From: Methanobrevibacter sp.
Lineage (GTDB): Archaea > Methanobacteriota > Methanobacteria > Methanobacteriales > Methanobacteriaceae
Assembly (NCBI RefSeq): GCF_017432245.1
Contig: NZ_JAFRJO010000004.1
Coordinates: 25,072 to 57,071, forward strand
Length of the DNA stretch: 32,000 nt
Reading direction: 5' to 3'
In this document: positions 9,095-30,407 of the stretch, one piece after another
Layout of the letters: each line of letters opens with the position of its first letter
How positions within the stretch are numbered: the stretch's first letter is position 1
Made by a program: the position numbers and the translations under genes
The notes under the pieces: model-generated
What the model was told of the DNA's origin: nothing
The model's database searches: none
Seen by the model: the letters and a program-made list of their open reading frames with translations, nothing else

Positions 9095-9736
9095 TTATTT
9101 TTCTAGATAATTATCAATTCTTTCACCAAAAATATTGTTGTAAAATTGAATGATGAAACCGACTGTAACAGCTGAAAAGATGGTTCCTTCACGAACCCCT
9201 TCAAGGTGGCCTATGAATGCCAATGCCAAAATGACACCTATGCTTACAACAGTAACATCAAAAAATGGCTTGACCTTACCCCAATCCTTGTTCAGGACTT
9301 CCCCTATCGCCACCACAGCACCATCTCCGGGAAGCATGGTAATGTCAGACTTTACTTCAATGACAAGACCGAATGCAAGAACAAGACAGCTAATGATTAG
9401 CAAGATCCATTGACTTATATAATTTGTTGGATTGATGAAGTCAATGAAACTTAAGTTAAAATCAATCATATAGCCAAAGAGAATGCATACAAGCATTTGA
9501 GCTATTTGTGATAATGTGATTTTTCTTAAAAGAACCATTTGGAATATGACAAGCAACACATTGAAAATTATTGTGAATTCTCCTACAGTCAATGGAAAAG
9601 CAACAGCTAGAACAGCAGGAATGCATGATATAGGAGGAGTGCCTAAAGTGGATTTAAGAGATAATGCAATGCCTAAAGACATTATGGTCACTCCAAGAAT
9701 AAGTAAAATATATCTAATAATCAATTTTTTATCCAT
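9095..9736 (-). CDS. Polytopic membrane protein, YczE/YitT-like (DUF6198-type)
   Basis: 213 aa, about 6 TM helices. LILGVTIMSLGIALSLKSTLGTPPISCIPAVL and GDGAVVAIGEVL resemble the YczE/YyaS family pattern. Confidence 0.65.
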   Translation of the reverse strand: MDKKLIIRYILLILGVTIMSLGIALSLKSTLGTPPISCIPAVLAVAFPLTVGEFTIIFNVLLVIFQMVLLRKITLSQIAQMLVCILFGYMIDFNLSFIDFINPTNYISQWILLIISCLVLAFGLVIEVKSDITMLPGDGAVVAIGEVLNKDWGKVKPFFDVTVVSIGVILALAFIGHLEGVREGTIFSAVTVGFIIQFYNNIFGERIDNYLEK

Positions 9737-9812
9737 TCTAAAACCTTTCCTATCAATTAAAAAAATAGTATTCCTCTAAAACCTTTCCTATCAATTAAAA
9801 AAAATAGTTTCC
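9737..9812. repeat. Tandem 38-bp duplication of the leader immediately upstream of the 9095..9736 gene
   Basis: 9737-9774 (TCTAAAACCTTTCCTATCAATTAAAAAAATAGTATTCC) and 9775-9812 (TCTAAAACCTTTCCTATCAATTAAAAAAAATAGTTTCC) are head-to-tail, differing only in A-run length and one indel. Copy 1 abuts the start codon. Confidence 0.8.
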
Positions 9813-24205: not shown

Positions 24206-25507
24206 ATGCAATATAGAATTGATTTAACTAACGATGAAGTACCAACCAAATGGTATAATATTAACGCTGATTTACCTGTAGAACTTCCTGCTCCTAAAAA
24301 CAGTGAAGGAAAAGATCAAATAGGCACATTGCCTCAAATATTCGTAAACGAATGTCTTAATCAAGAGTTCGCTACTGACAGATACATAAGTATCCCAAAA
24401 GAGGTAAGAGAACTCTACCAAAGATTAGGAAGACCTACTCCTTTAGTTAGAGCAAAAGGACTTGAAGAAAAACTTAATACGCCTGCAAAAATCTATTATA
24501 AGCGGGAAGACACTTCTCCTACTGGAAGTCACAAGCTAAACAGTGCAATAGCTCAGGCATACTATGCTAAAAAGGAAGGTATTGAAAGAATTACCACAGA
24601 AACCGGTGCAGGGCAATGGGGTACTGCTTTATCCCTTGCAGCTTCCATGATGGGAATCGATTGTACCGTATACATGGTAAGGGTTTCATATGACCAAAAG
24701 CCTTTCAGAAAAACTATCATGCAATTGTATGATGGAGAGGTTCATGCTTCCCCAAGTGAAAATACTGAAGTAGGAAGGAAAGTTCTTGCAGAACATCCAG
24801 ACACTCCAGGTTCCCTTGGAATAGCTATTTCTGAAGCTGTAGAAGATGCTTTAACTGATGATAAAGTAAAATACACCTTAGGAAGTGTATTGAACCACGT
24901 TATCTTGCATCAAACCACAATTGGTCAAGAAATCAAGATTCAATTGGAAAAAGTTGAAGAAGAGCCAGACACAATGATTGCTTGTGTTGGTGGAGGAAGT
25001 AACTTTGGAGGATCCTTGTTCCCATTCATTAAAGACAAGATTCAAGGTAACACCGACACTGAATTCATAGCTGTAGAACCTTCTGCATGCCCTACATTGA
25101 CTCAAGGAGAATACAGATACGACTTTGGTGATGAAGTGGGATTCACTCCTCTCTTGAAGATGTTTACATTAGGACACAACTTCGTTGCTCCTTCTGTACA
25201 TGCAGGTGGACTTAGATACCACGGTATGAACACACAAGTGTCCTTGCTTAGAGACTTAGGCTACATCAATCCAGTTGCTGTTCACCAAAGAGATGTATTT
25301 GCAGCAGGTAAAATGTTTGCATTGTGTGAAGGAGTCATTCCAGCACCTGAAACAAACCATGCAATCAAGGCAGCTATTGATGAAGCTAAAAAATGTAAGG
25401 AAACTGGTGAAGAAAAAACCATTGTTGTTAACTTCTCAGGCCATGGTTTAATGGACTTTAAAGGTTACGCAAGTTATATGGATGGATCTATGGAAAACTC
25501 CAAATAG
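24206..25507 (+). CDS. trpB2: TrpB2-type tryptophan synthase beta-subunit-like PLP enzyme
   Basis: 433 aa with the long TrpB2 N-terminal extension. The PLP-lysine motif is EDTSPTGSHKLNSAIAQAYYAKKEG, followed by GGGSNFGG and then GLRYHG. No other trp genes are adjacent. Confidence 0.9.
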   Translation: MQYRIDLTNDEVPTKWYNINADLPVELPAPKNSEGKDQIGTLPQIFVNECLNQEFATDRYISIPKEVRELYQRLGRPTPLVRAKGLEEKLNTPAKIYYKREDTSPTGSHKLNSAIAQAYYAKKEGIERITTETGAGQWGTALSLAASMMGIDCTVYMVRVSYDQKPFRKTIMQLYDGEVHASPSENTEVGRKVLAEHPDTPGSLGIAISEAVEDALTDDKVKYTLGSVLNHVILHQTTIGQEIKIQLEKVEEEPDTMIACVGGGSNFGGSLFPFIKDKIQGNTDTEFIAVEPSACPTLTQGEYRYDFGDEVGFTPLLKMFTLGHNFVAPSVHAGGLRYHGMNTQVSLLRDLGYINPVAVHQRDVFAAGKMFALCEGVIPAPETNHAIKAAIDEAKKCKETGEEKTIVVNFSGHGLMDFKGYASYMDGSMENSK

Positions 25508-25542
25508 ATTTCCATTCTATTATTTTTTTTTATGATAATTTT

Positions 25543-25783
25543 TAGTTATAAGTTATAAGTTATAACTAATAACTTATAAAATATAAGAAATAACTTAAAA
25601 ATAAAAACTTATAAATGATAAATTATAAAGTAAAAGTAATAAGATATAACTTAAAACTTATATAGTATAACTTATAAATTATAATATATAAGTAATAACT
25701 AGGAAGTAATAACTTACAAATAATAACAAATAAGTTTTAAGAAAAAACTTCTAAGTTATTCCAAGTTATTCATTATAAGTTAT
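25543..25783. repeat. Iteron array of AAGTTAT / ATAACTT (candidate centromere-like site/operator upstream of parA)
   Basis: Perfect AAGTTAT at 25550, 25557, 25753, 25763 and 25777. Perfect ATACTT-orientation copies (ATAACTT) at 25569, 25590, 25646, 25667 and 25709. At least 5 one-mismatch copies, e.g. 25543, 25604, 25653, 25695, 25731. Orientation runs F-F-F, then R x5-8, then F-F-F. The last copy overlaps a TATA-like TTATAAAA about 55 bp before the parA ATG. Confidence 0.8.
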
Positions 25784-25837
25784 AAAATTTAAGAAATCAC
25801 TTTATTTTAAGAAAAAATACTAAGGAGAATTAATATA

Positions 25838-26611
25838 ATGGGAGAAACTATTGCCGTAATGAATCAAAAAGGCGGATGTGGGAAGACTACAACTGTAGTT
25901 AATTTGGCAACATCACTTGCAGCTATGGGAAAGGCCGTCCTTGTAGTCGATATGGATCCGCAAGCTAACGCTACAACAAGTTTTGGAATTAATAAAACAG
26001 AAATCAAGAAGACAGTATACACTGCTTTAGTAAACGAATGCAGTGTTCAAAAAGCTACAATTCCAACAAAAATTGAAAACCTATTCATACTTCCAAGCAA
26101 TATCGACTTAAGCGGTATTGAAGTGGAATTAAGCAAGGAAGCTAACTATCATATAGCTTTAAAGAACTTGCTTGAACCTATTAAAGGCATCTTTGATTAC
26201 ATTATAATAGACTTGCCACCATCTCTTGGAATAATAACAATAAATTCACTAATAGCTGCAGACAGCGTATTGATACCGATTCAAGCTGAATATTTTGCAC
26301 TTGAAGGATTGGCCGACCTGATGAATACAATCAAACTTGTGGAAACAAGATTAAGAAGCCCGACACCAATCAAGGGAATACTTCTAACATTGTATGATGC
26401 AAGAACCAGATTAGGAAGGGAAGTCTATTCCGAGCTAAAAAAATACTTCAAGGACAAGGAATACGTATTCAATACAGTCATTCCAAGAAACATACGTTTG
26501 GCAGAAGCTCCAAGTTATGGAAAACCATGTATTGTCTATGATCCAGAAAGCAAAGGTGCAATAGCTTACTTGAAACTTGCTAAGGAAATATTGGAAAGGG
26601 ATGGAAACTGA
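25838..26611 (+). CDS. parA: ParA/Soj-family partition ATPase (deviant Walker A)
   Basis: IAVMNQKGGCGKTTTVVNLA (KGGxGKT with signature Lys), VLVVDMDPQANAT, IIIDLPPSLG, and LPSNIDLSGIEVEL. 257 aa with no N-terminal HTH. AAGGAGA RBS. Confidence 0.9.
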   Translation: MGETIAVMNQKGGCGKTTTVVNLATSLAAMGKAVLVVDMDPQANATTSFGINKTEIKKTVYTALVNECSVQKATIPTKIENLFILPSNIDLSGIEVELSKEANYHIALKNLLEPIKGIFDYIIIDLPPSLGIITINSLIAADSVLIPIQAEYFALEGLADLMNTIKLVETRLRSPTPIKGILLTLYDARTRLGREVYSELKKYFKDKEYVFNTVIPRNIRLAEAPSYGKPCIVYDPESKGAIAYLKLAKEILERDGN

Positions 26612-26688
26612 AAAATAAAAAATAGAAAGAGAAAGAGAGTTATTGAATTAAAATAGGAATATGATACTTGATGATTACAATAATGATT

Positions 26689-26696
26689 TTTATATA
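26689..26696 (+). promoter_or_regulatory. Consensus archaeal TATA box positioned for a leaderless or near-leaderless transcript of the 26717 gene
   Basis: TTTATATA at 26689-26696. Its centre is about 25 bp upstream of the ATG at 26717, the usual TATA-to-TSS distance in archaea. Confidence 0.35.
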
Positions 26697-26716
26697 ACAC
26701 GAAAGGGTTTGATGAA

Positions 26717-27361
26717 ATGGCTAAAAAGGAAAAGAATACAGGATTAGGAAGAGGATTGGATTCATTGATTCCAAAAATAGAAGAGAAAGATTTTGAAGAA
26801 GGCATCAGTCTTGAGGATATGTTAAGGGAATCCGAAGAGGAATCAAAAACATTTGAAGAACTGGTTGAAGAAGTTGAAGAGGAATTCGATGGTGAAGATG
26901 AACTTCAAGTTTTAGAAAAATCAGCAGATGTTGAAGAGGAAAAAGTAGAAGAAAGTTCAGAGTACACAAATGTTTTCTTCAATGATGATGAGAAACCACC
27001 AGAAAATGGTGCAAAAGATGAAGAAAAAATCAGCTCAGAAAAAAGTGTAGAAATAATTGATTCTACAGTTAATTTAAATGAAGAAAGTGATGCAACTAGT
27101 GAAATAATTAAAGCTTCAGATGATTTAAAAGAAGTTGGTAGTCTTCTTTCAGAAAAAGAGGAGAAACTGATAGATGAAGTCATCGAAACTGTGGAAAATA
27201 ATCCAAGAATCACTTTATGGTCTGCAAGATCAGCGGCTGTACTAAGGTACTTGAGAAAAACCGAACCTGAATTCAGCATAAGCAGTGAAGCATCAAACTT
27301 GATAGATGCTGCAATAGCTGAAAAGTATCCTGAAATCTGGACATTGTTTAATCATTTGTAA
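26717..27361 (+). CDS. Acidic protein with ParB-like N-terminal peptide and C-terminal ribbon-helix-helix-like module (candidate ParA partner; not a canonical ParB)
   Basis: aa 1-20 are MAKKEKNTGLGRGLDSLIPK, matching the conserved ParB/Spo0J N-terminal GLGRGL(D/E/S)ALL ParA-interaction motif. aa ~21-160 are very acidic low-complexity sequence with no ParB/Srx GERRxRA box and no HTH. aa 161-207 are NNPRITLWSARSAAVLRYLRKTEPEFSISSEASNLIDAAIAEKY, a beta-helix-turn-helix pattern like ParG/omega/CopG. Confidence 0.75.
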   Translation: MAKKEKNTGLGRGLDSLIPKIEEKDFEEGISLEDMLRESEEESKTFEELVEEVEEEFDGEDELQVLEKSADVEEEKVEESSEYTNVFFNDDEKPPENGAKDEEKISSEKSVEIIDSTVNLNEESDATSEIIKASDDLKEVGSLLSEKEEKLIDEVIETVENNPRITLWSARSAAVLRYLRKTEPEFSISSEASNLIDAAIAEKYPEIWTLFNHL

Positions 27362-30201: not shown

Positions 30202-30407
30202 GTATAACTACTTATTCTAACTTATATCCTAACTTAATCCTAACTTATATCCTAACTAATAGTTTATATAACTTGAAAAATATAATTATATTATTATATA
30301 AAAAAATCATTATCAAAATTTATTGAAATATTTGATATAATATGATTTGATTATCAAAGATTACTTAATCATAATTACAATGTTTTAAAATAAAGTAAGG
30401 TGTTTTA

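Follow-up and report, generated by a model that had tools for sequence, protein, structure and literature searches.

The repeat array described here lies upstream of a partition-type gene pair, segA and segB, in a 32,000-nucleotide (32-kb) stretch of DNA from Methanobrevibacter sp. (NCBI RefSeq assembly GCF_017432245.1, contig NZ_JAFRJO010000004.1, positions 25,072 to 57,071 of the forward strand). This whole stretch is referred to as the window, and positions are counted from its first nucleotide. The array is found between trpB2 and segA, a gene of the parA type, in an intergenic region (25508-25837) that is 330 bp long and has a GC content of 14%. The gene segB follows segA on the same strand after a gap of 105 bp. 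The original prediction, made from the letters of the sequence, regarded the repeats as an iteron-type centromere and autoregulatory operator of a ParA system, and it named the product of the gene at 26717 as a candidate binding protein. The features of the locus are collected in Table 1, and loci from other genomes are referred to by L numbers.

Table 1. Features at and around the segAB locus. Positions are those of the window unless a locus number precedes them.
Feature	Position	Strand	Description
trpB2	24206-25507		TrpB-like pyridoxal phosphate enzyme; directly upstream of the array
Main array	25543-25759	.	31 contiguous heptads in a single register, consensus A-A-S-T-T-A-T (S is G or C); putative segS-type SegB binding array
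Tandem duplication TTCCAAGTTA	25749-25771	+	2.3 copies, period 10; source of the copies at 25753 and 25763
Promoter-proximal site	25773-25785	.	Perfect 13-bp palindrome TTATAA-G-TTATAA, 0 mismatches
TATA-like TTATAAAA	25780-25787	+	Candidate archaeal TATA box of segA (putative promoter element); overlaps the proximal site and the last copy
Shine-Dalgarno-like AGGAG	25823-25827	+	10 nt ahead of the segA ATG; kept in relatives
segA	25838-26611	+	ParA/Soj-type deviant Walker ATPase, 257 amino acids; Pfam AAA_31, E = 8e-66
segB	26717-27361	+	214 amino acids; N-terminal ParA-binding-type peptide, acidic variable linker, C-terminal SegB ribbon-helix-helix (RHH) domain
Peptide GLGRGLDSLIP	26741-26773	+	segB codons 9-19; ParB-type ParA-binding peptide
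SegB DNA-binding domain	27155-27352	+	segB codons ~147-212; conserved, includes the strand NPRITLWS
Tandem repeat TATCCTAACTTA	30204-30275	+	12-bp unit, 3-4 copies; second, smaller cluster between an old yellow enzyme (OYE)-type oxidoreductase gene and an amidase gene
Bacterial comparison loci for the peptide	L019 3992-4849; L020 3992-4858

Exact searches of the window find the 7-mer AAGTTAT on the forward strand at 25550, 25557, 25753, 25763 and 25777, and on the reverse strand, where it reads ATAACTT, at 25569, 25590, 25646, 25667 and 25709. These are the ten perfect copies from which the original prediction set out, each at its predicted place. The window holds 17 copies in total, so that 10 of the 17 fall inside 240 bp. 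When the 330-bp intergenic region was shuffled 2000 times with its dinucleotide composition preserved, the mean was 0.58 copies and the maximum 5, and the earlier judgement that the copy number lies beyond chance therefore holds. A longer unit is also enriched. With up to 2 mismatches allowed, 23 copies of the 13-mer TTATAASTTATAA are present in the window, where the expectation is 4.2 ± 2.0; none of 100 shuffles reached 23, and 18 of the 23 window matches to the 13-mer TTATAA-S-TTATAA at this threshold fall in the array.

The copies are strictly phased. Mapping on both strands places every copy with no or one mismatch between 25543 and 25759, whatever its strand, in one 7-bp register. Cut into heptads, the array reads TAGTTAT AAGTTAT AAGTTAT AACTAAT AACTTAT ... 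AACTTCT AAGTTAT. Position 3 of the heptad takes up 22 of the 29 G/C bases of this interval (11 G and 11 C; chi-square p = 2e-17), and a scan of the window finds no comparable 7-bp phasing in any other 217-bp stretch, other AT-rich intergenic regions included. Shifted by one frame, the unit becomes a palindromic hexamer, TTATAA, with one G/C base after it. This hexamer is matched with at most one mismatch by 24 of the 32 in-register hexamers and by 0 out-of-register hexamers. Because the unit is palindromic, all that separates the copies formerly called forward and reverse is whether G or C stands at the dyad (TAAGTTA versus TAACTTA), and the layout of three blocks in alternating orientation that had been described is an artefact of reading. 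The last copies, at 25763 and 25777, stand 3 bp off the main register because the 10-bp tandem duplication intervenes. No Rfam family was found in a search of the whole window, and the array is thus not a known RNA.

It had also been proposed that the last copy overlaps a TATA-like sequence upstream of segA, an arrangement that would permit autoregulation. The overlap with TTATAAAA is present, and autoregulation through this copy is plausible, but the copy itself is degraded in the close relative M. ruminantium, in which the promoter-proximal palindrome has become TTATAATTTAAAA and the neighbouring duplication has one 10-bp unit fewer.

The protein encoded at 26717 has no recognized domain in Pfam or NCBIfam, whether searched whole or in halves, and none in Pfam even at E ≤ 10. 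A profile of its C-terminal domain nevertheless matches Saccharolobus solfataricus SegB over about 67 residues (7dv2, E = 5.8e-13; 7duv, E = 1.2e-12), and a single-sequence search of the 214-residue protein against the SegB structure gives E = 9.4e-9. The protein family is small, with 194 representatives at 50% identity. Its members begin with a conserved N-terminus (M..K..GLG(R/K)GLDSLIP), continue with an acidic linker of highly variable length and end in a conserved C-terminal domain of about 65 residues (..NPRITLWS..SAAVLRYLRKT.PEFSIS.EAS.LI..A...KYPEIW.). P163, R164 and W168 never vary among 27 diverse homologues, and N162, I165, T166, L167 and S169 occur in at least 90% of them. The β-strand of SegB forms only in the dimer. 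An AlphaFold2 (AF2) model of the protein, with a predicted local distance difference test score (pLDDT) of 86, consists of a helix, a coil (NPRITLWS) and three further helices. This order of elements is that of S. solfataricus SegB, an RHH protein with the arrangement α1-β1-α2-α3-α4 (PMC8682754). In that protein Lys52 is essential for DNA binding, and euryarchaea have Arg instead (PMC8682754); the invariant Arg164 stands at this position.

A signature has been published for SegB, K/R-D/N-P-K/R-I-G/T-V/L-W-S-Y/P-P/E (PMC12139799). The window protein follows it in the core N-P-R-I-T-L-W-S, and its full strand, N-N-P-R-I-T-L-W-S-A-R, deviates at the first and the last two positions; the family consensus of the strand is K-N-P-R-I-T-L-W-S. 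Because of the profile match, the order of elements and the core signature, the gene at 26717 is identified by homology as segB. Earlier papers already list SegB homologues from Methanobacteriales (PMC5120986, PMC12139799). The proposal that the 26717 product binds the array is likewise strengthened, since the product is a SegB-family RHH protein and Sulfolobus SegB binds sites of the same build upstream of segA (PMC12284271, PMC12139799). Even close relatives differ strongly in the length and sequence of the SegB acidic linker, which is hypervariable. Between the locus L001 (118-1671) and the window (25838-27361), SegA is 98.8% identical and SegB only 62%.

The N-terminus of SegB carries a peptide of bacterial type. 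GLGRGLDSLIP is identical in a ParB of Saccharimonadales (MSNNKGLGRGLDSLIPK), and near-identical peptides are present in a ParB of Bacillota (MSKGLGRGLDALIP) and in Spo0J of Thermus thermophilus (GLGRGLEALLPK). At the central position of the peptide the SegB family alternates between R and K, as has been described for bacterial ParB, and the N-terminal peptide of ParB alone suffices to activate ParA (PMC12462528). The same type of peptide is found in many short SegB-family proteins from metagenomes and in the 104-residue SegB of a Thermococci metagenome-assembled genome (MAG). In the single case of an orphan segB (L013 3400-4231, 239 amino acids), there is no segA upstream and no GLGRGL N-terminus, which is consistent with a role of the peptide in serving the ATPase. 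Published accounts describe SegB as being without similarity to ParB. Searched with phmmer, the first 36 residues of the protein matched only T. thermophilus Spo0J (E = 1.1, not significant) and not the SegB chain, and the first 10 residues of Sulfolobus SegB lie outside this comparison.

The partner ATPase is also of bacterial type. Against solved structures, the segA product matches ParA of Myxococcus xanthus (8ray) with E = 1.6e-76, Soj of Helicobacter pylori with E = 7.5e-65 and Soj of T. thermophilus with E = 1e-56. The match to S. solfataricus SegA (7dut) reaches only 2.2e-18 and covers residues 5-169, whereas the bacterial ParA/Soj matches are full-length. As far as sequence comparison goes, the ATPase is of the same superfamily as S. 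solfataricus SegA, yet its closest solved relatives are bacterial chromosomal ParA/Soj proteins. A TATA-like run, ATTTTTATATAA, is located at 26687-26698 in the gap between segA and segB (26612-26716), about 20 bp ahead of the segB ATG, and could be a separate promoter of segB.

The array was compared across 18 archaeal loci from species-representative genomes, 6 close-strain loci and 7 metagenome loci adjoining segA and/or segB, with the addition of one metagenome contig end that holds only the trpB2 side of the array. In 17 of the 18 archaeal loci segB lies directly downstream of segA, and in the Thermococci MAG (L017) the two genes overlap. The original prediction had called for such a comparison, and its outcome is that the core motif upstream of segA is kept between genera and the flanks diverge. 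The core TAA-S-TTA occurs upstream of segA in every segA-bearing locus with an intact upstream region, in Methanobrevibacter, Methanobacterium, Methanovirga and the Thermococci MAG. In all Methanobrevibacter loci with an intact upstream region except that of M. cuticularis (L002), the most frequent 7-mer there is TAACTTA/AAGTTAT; in M. cuticularis the core is still abundant, with 12 exact sites. The sites are also concentrated at this place. With the truncated L001 excluded, 71-100% of the TAASTTA sites in 6-9 kb of the Methanobrevibacter loci lie within 700 bp upstream of segA, and in the 32 kb of the window 9 of 17 do so. In Methanobrevibacter loci with trpB2 upstream, all but L002, the trpB2-segA gap of 383-673 bp is filled with 8-21 exact sites.

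Spacing between sites is equally regular. Among neighbour distances of up to 80 bp, 144 of 174 are multiples of 7 where about 25 are expected, although these counts are not independent because many of the Methanobrevibacter loci are related. In more distant lineages the distances are multiples of 7 in 8 of 9 cases in M. cuticularis, 3 of 3 in Methanobacterium L014, 2 of 2 in L013 and 3 of 3 in Methanovirga. The register persists over non-motif spacers of 14-77 bp, and the sequences flanking the sites again give the 13-bp palindrome TTATAA-S-TTATAA, with G/C enriched at positions ±7. Methanobacterium-type loci have a conserved block, tatatatta-TAASTTA-TAASTTA-TAATTTA-GAACTTA, of four in-register heptads that stands directly after a TATA-like run and 25-70 bp ahead of the start codon, and two of these loci have a second phased cluster downstream of segB. 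The Thermococci MAG, with a GC content of 40%, has AACTTAT AACTTAG AACTTAT about 50-70 bp ahead of segA, and in 6 further metagenome loci the core lies about 40-70 bp ahead of the segA start codon. Upstream of the orphan segB of L013 there are TAASTTA sites too, with distances of 21 and 14 bp between them. The motif follows segAB and not trpB2, as it is kept where the upstream gene differs (L014-L017, L013).

Two further observations concern the composition of these arrays. A 20-bp perfect palindrome, TTATCACTTATAAGTGATAA, equal to three in-register hexamers, occurs in L021 (4693-4712), L022 (4731-4750), L025 (4738-4757) and L015 (4443-4462). In M. ruminantium and in a strain that shares the window's SegB, this palindrome closely follows trpB2, and in a Methanobacteriota MAG (L015) it stands downstream of segB; it is absent from the window, where about 132 bp are missing as well. 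In some Methanobrevibacter species (L006, L009 and L018) the array upstream of segA is built of longer units of about 70 bp repeated two to three times (...gttaacttataatttatctc.tttgagttgg.gggtataactta.tt.gttata.cttttaactt...), which suggests that arrays grow through the duplication of multi-site blocks.

From homology and the comparative evidence, the array probably serves a chromosomal, SegAB-like partition system of Methanobrevibacter as its cis-acting site, a centromere and operator of the segS type, and we hold this reading with good confidence. In this respect the original prediction of an iteron-type centromere and operator for a ParA system is upheld. The proposed mechanism is as follows. 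Each hexamer would take up one SegB dimer, whose paired β-strands (PRITLWS) would enter the major groove, and the dimers would stand side by side along the array at a 7-bp pitch, as omega does on the heptads of plasmid pSM19035 and Sulfolobus SegB on TCTAGA-S-TCTAGA. Successive dimers would be turned by about 240 degrees, giving a left-handed protein helix of the kind seen for SegB and omega (PMC8682754). Each bound dimer would display two N-terminal GLGRGLDSLIP peptides on long acidic linkers, and the array would therefore gather many ParA-activating peptides at one point of the chromosome. The resulting partition complex would stimulate ATP hydrolysis by nucleoid-bound, Soj-type SegA and would be moved by it. 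RHH proteins do not spread far (PMC8682754), and SegB, which has no CTPase clamp, would be unable to spread, so that the iterated DNA sites may hard-wire the multivalency that spreading otherwise provides. Occupancy by SegB would also repress transcription of segA, and perhaps of segB, because the proximal units overlap the putative TATA region.

A more specific version of this proposal concerns the origin of the parts. Euryarchaeal SegB may be a modular chimera in which a bacterial ParB-type ParA-binding peptide and an expandable acidic linker are joined to an archaeal SegB RHH domain, paired with a bacterial-type Soj ATPase, and the centromere may be a hard-wired (TTATAA-S)n super-array that replaces the CTP-driven spreading of ParB. 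We lean only slightly toward this account.

Compared with the SegAB system of Sulfolobales, the locus shares a homologous SegB C-terminal RHH domain, a segB gene directly downstream of the ParA-type gene and sites upstream of segA. The sites share their architecture as well, being palindromic hexamers at a 7-bp pitch with a central G/C base (PMC12284271, PMC12139799). In S. solfataricus the motif obtained for SegB by chromatin immunoprecipitation sequencing (ChIP-seq) is TCTAGA-S-TCTAGA, in which the core AGA-S-TCT hardly varies (PMC12284271), and the segS site of S. acidocaldarius consists of heptad repeats, [AGNGTNN]x3 (PMC12139799). The hexamer is different, however, being TTATAA here and TCTAGA there, and the window contains no match to the S. 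solfataricus SegB motif. Further differences are the number of units (about 31 contiguous ones here, 2-3 per Sulfolobus site), an ATPase far closer to bacterial Soj than to SegA (1e-76 versus 2e-18), a 105-bp gap between genes that overlap in Sulfolobus, the bacterial ParB peptide at the N-terminus of SegB, and a strand Arg in place of Lys52 (PMC8682754).

The closest functional analogue appears to be the omega/delta system of pSM19035. Its omega protein is likewise an RHH centromere-binding protein with a flexible, ParA-activating N-terminal tail and a heptad centromere that overlaps the promoter of the ParA gene. One RHH dimer of omega binds each 7-bp heptad, 7-10 contiguous heptads of mixed orientation overlap the par promoters, and at least 4 contiguous heptads are required for activation of ParA (PMC9499535). 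The type Ib plasmid systems as a group, omega/delta and ParG/ParF, resemble the locus functionally through an iterated short-repeat centromere that lies over a promoter. No homology of SegB to omega or ParG was found, either among profile matches to the Protein Data Bank (PDB) at E ≤ 10 or among Pfam RHH families at E ≤ 10. Unlike the unit described here, the omega heptad WATCACW is not palindromic. The pSM19035 system is plasmid-borne and has 7-10 heptads, whereas the window locus is chromosomal and has about 31, and the delta ATPase is only a distant match to the ATPase of the window (2oze, E = 1.6e-14). Bacterial ParABS systems share with the locus the Soj-type ATPase and an adaptor peptide, GLG(R/K)GLDSLIP, that matches ParB's motif for binding ParA. 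They differ in that the adaptor here has no ParB/Srx CTPase domain and no helix-turn-helix (HTH) motif, that no parS-like 16-mer is found in the window, and that multivalency is proposed to arise through iterated DNA sites and not through CTP-dependent clamp loading and spreading.

Several results weigh against the centromere reading. Beyond architecture, the letters of the motif have almost nothing in common with the Sulfolobus site, and, as noted above, the spacing counts come from related loci and are not independent. The three promoter-proximal copies of the window strain are not conserved in M. ruminantium, in which a 1-bp indel also disrupts the register. A Foldseek search with the monomer model gave no matches and was uninformative. 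In a metagenome scan for the triple hexamer TTATAASTTATAASTTATAA, 7 of the 120 matches listed adjoin segAB; the other 113 have no segAB in the stretch fetched, and several of them are plain (AACTTAT)n microsatellites. Perfect (AACTTAT)n tracts of 5-9 units also occur, with no segAB nearby, in unrelated and more GC-rich metagenome contigs (L035, L052, L086, L143), so that the heptad as such is not exclusive to segAB. These tracts are an argument for regarding the array as a neutral, AT-rich heptanucleotide microsatellite, born by slippage, decaying by point mutation and without function. The 14% GC content of the region would suit such an origin, as would the changes in copy number and the indels that separate strains, which include duplications of 36 bp and 10 bp and an indel of 132 bp. 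A neutral tract would not be expected, however, to keep the core in the same position with respect to segA among genera that differ in flanks and upstream genes, or to maintain its register across 14-77 bp of non-motif spacer. Other AT-rich intergenic regions of the window show no such phasing, and the architecture matches the experimentally defined site of a homologous protein (PMC12284271), all of which makes this explanation highly improbable.

A stronger competitor, though still an unlikely one, holds that the array is solely a transcriptional operator through which SegB or another repressor autoregulates segAB, with no part in partition. The sites lie about 20-90 bp from the start codon in every clade, Methanobacterium-type loci possess just 4-5 heptads directly 3′ of the TATA-like run, the orphan segB retains sites in its own upstream region even though it has no segA, and a review raises a possible regulatory role for the Sulfolobus sites as well (PMC5120986). 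Yet at least 30 units over 220-670 bp far exceed what occlusion of a promoter needs, the extra phased cluster downstream of segB in Methanobacterium loci lies away from the promoter, and a ParA-activating peptide together with a ParA partner makes sense only for a partition complex. The array might instead serve something else, such as a replication origin (origin recognition box, ORB, or DNA unwinding element, DUE) or the regulation of the trpB2-like gene, a suggestion that draws on the extreme AT-richness and repeat density of the tract and on its position directly after trpB2 in Methanobrevibacter. An origin was rejected because no Orc1/Cdc6 Pfam match exists among window open reading frames (ORFs) of at least 140 amino acids and the cumulative GC skew has no turn at the locus. 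Regulation of trpB2 was rejected because the motif stays with segAB under other upstream genes, and the absence of an Rfam family also counts against roles of this kind, which are the least probable of all.

The surroundings of the locus are those of a chromosome. The window carries chromosomal housekeeping genes, among them genes for Fae-Hps, Mtd, HisB, a LeuA-type enzyme, TrpB2 and a GatA-type amidase, and contigs as long as 497 kb share the gene order around the locus. The smaller cluster built of TATCCTAACTTA contains three exact TAACTTA cores at a spacing of 11-12 bp and not 7 bp; its copy number is 1-2 in M. ruminantium and 4 in L025, and it may be an accessory SegB site or unrelated. 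Elsewhere in the window, at 9737-9812, a 38-bp direct repeat, TCTAAAACCTTTCCTATCAATTAAAAAAAATAGTTTCC (2.0 copies, 94% match), lies immediately upstream of the start codon of a minus-strand DUF6198 gene (9095-9736).

To our knowledge, no dedicated machine for chromosome segregation other than SegAB has been described in archaea, and the DNA sites of SegAB are known only in Sulfolobales. In a ChIP study of 2025, Thermococcus sibiricus was searched with the Sulfolobus motif; no convincing site emerged in the vicinity of segAB, and quite different sequences were predicted to be present there (PMC12284271). In the literature searched we found no definition of a euryarchaeal SegB site, methanogens included. 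A different sequence within a like architecture would explain why searches with the Sulfolobus motif found no sites near euryarchaeal segAB. For Methanobacteriales and the Thermococci MAG a testable consensus can be stated, TTATAA-S-TTATAA with the core TAA-S-TTA and 7-bp phasing, and the recurrence of this pitch suggests that SegB-DNA assemblies have it in common. The arrays vary in size, with about 4 units in Methanobacterium and at least 30 in Methanobrevibacter.

What is new with respect to known SegAB systems is the other hexamer, the much larger phased array, the Soj-type ATPase and the ParB-like activating peptide. The combination of the last two points to a way in which an adaptor of the RHH type can be coupled to a bacterial-type ParA motor, and the pairing bears on the modular assembly of partition systems. 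If the chimera and super-array account is true, the locus would provide, as far as we have found, the first defined chromosomal centromere of a methanogen, and it would supply the consensus that was missed near euryarchaeal segAB. The open question of where euryarchaeal SegB binds thereby becomes directly testable, although the answer is not surprising in kind. Methanobrevibacter is the dominant methanogen of the gut and rumen, and for this reason a defined centromere could aid the construction of stable vectors.

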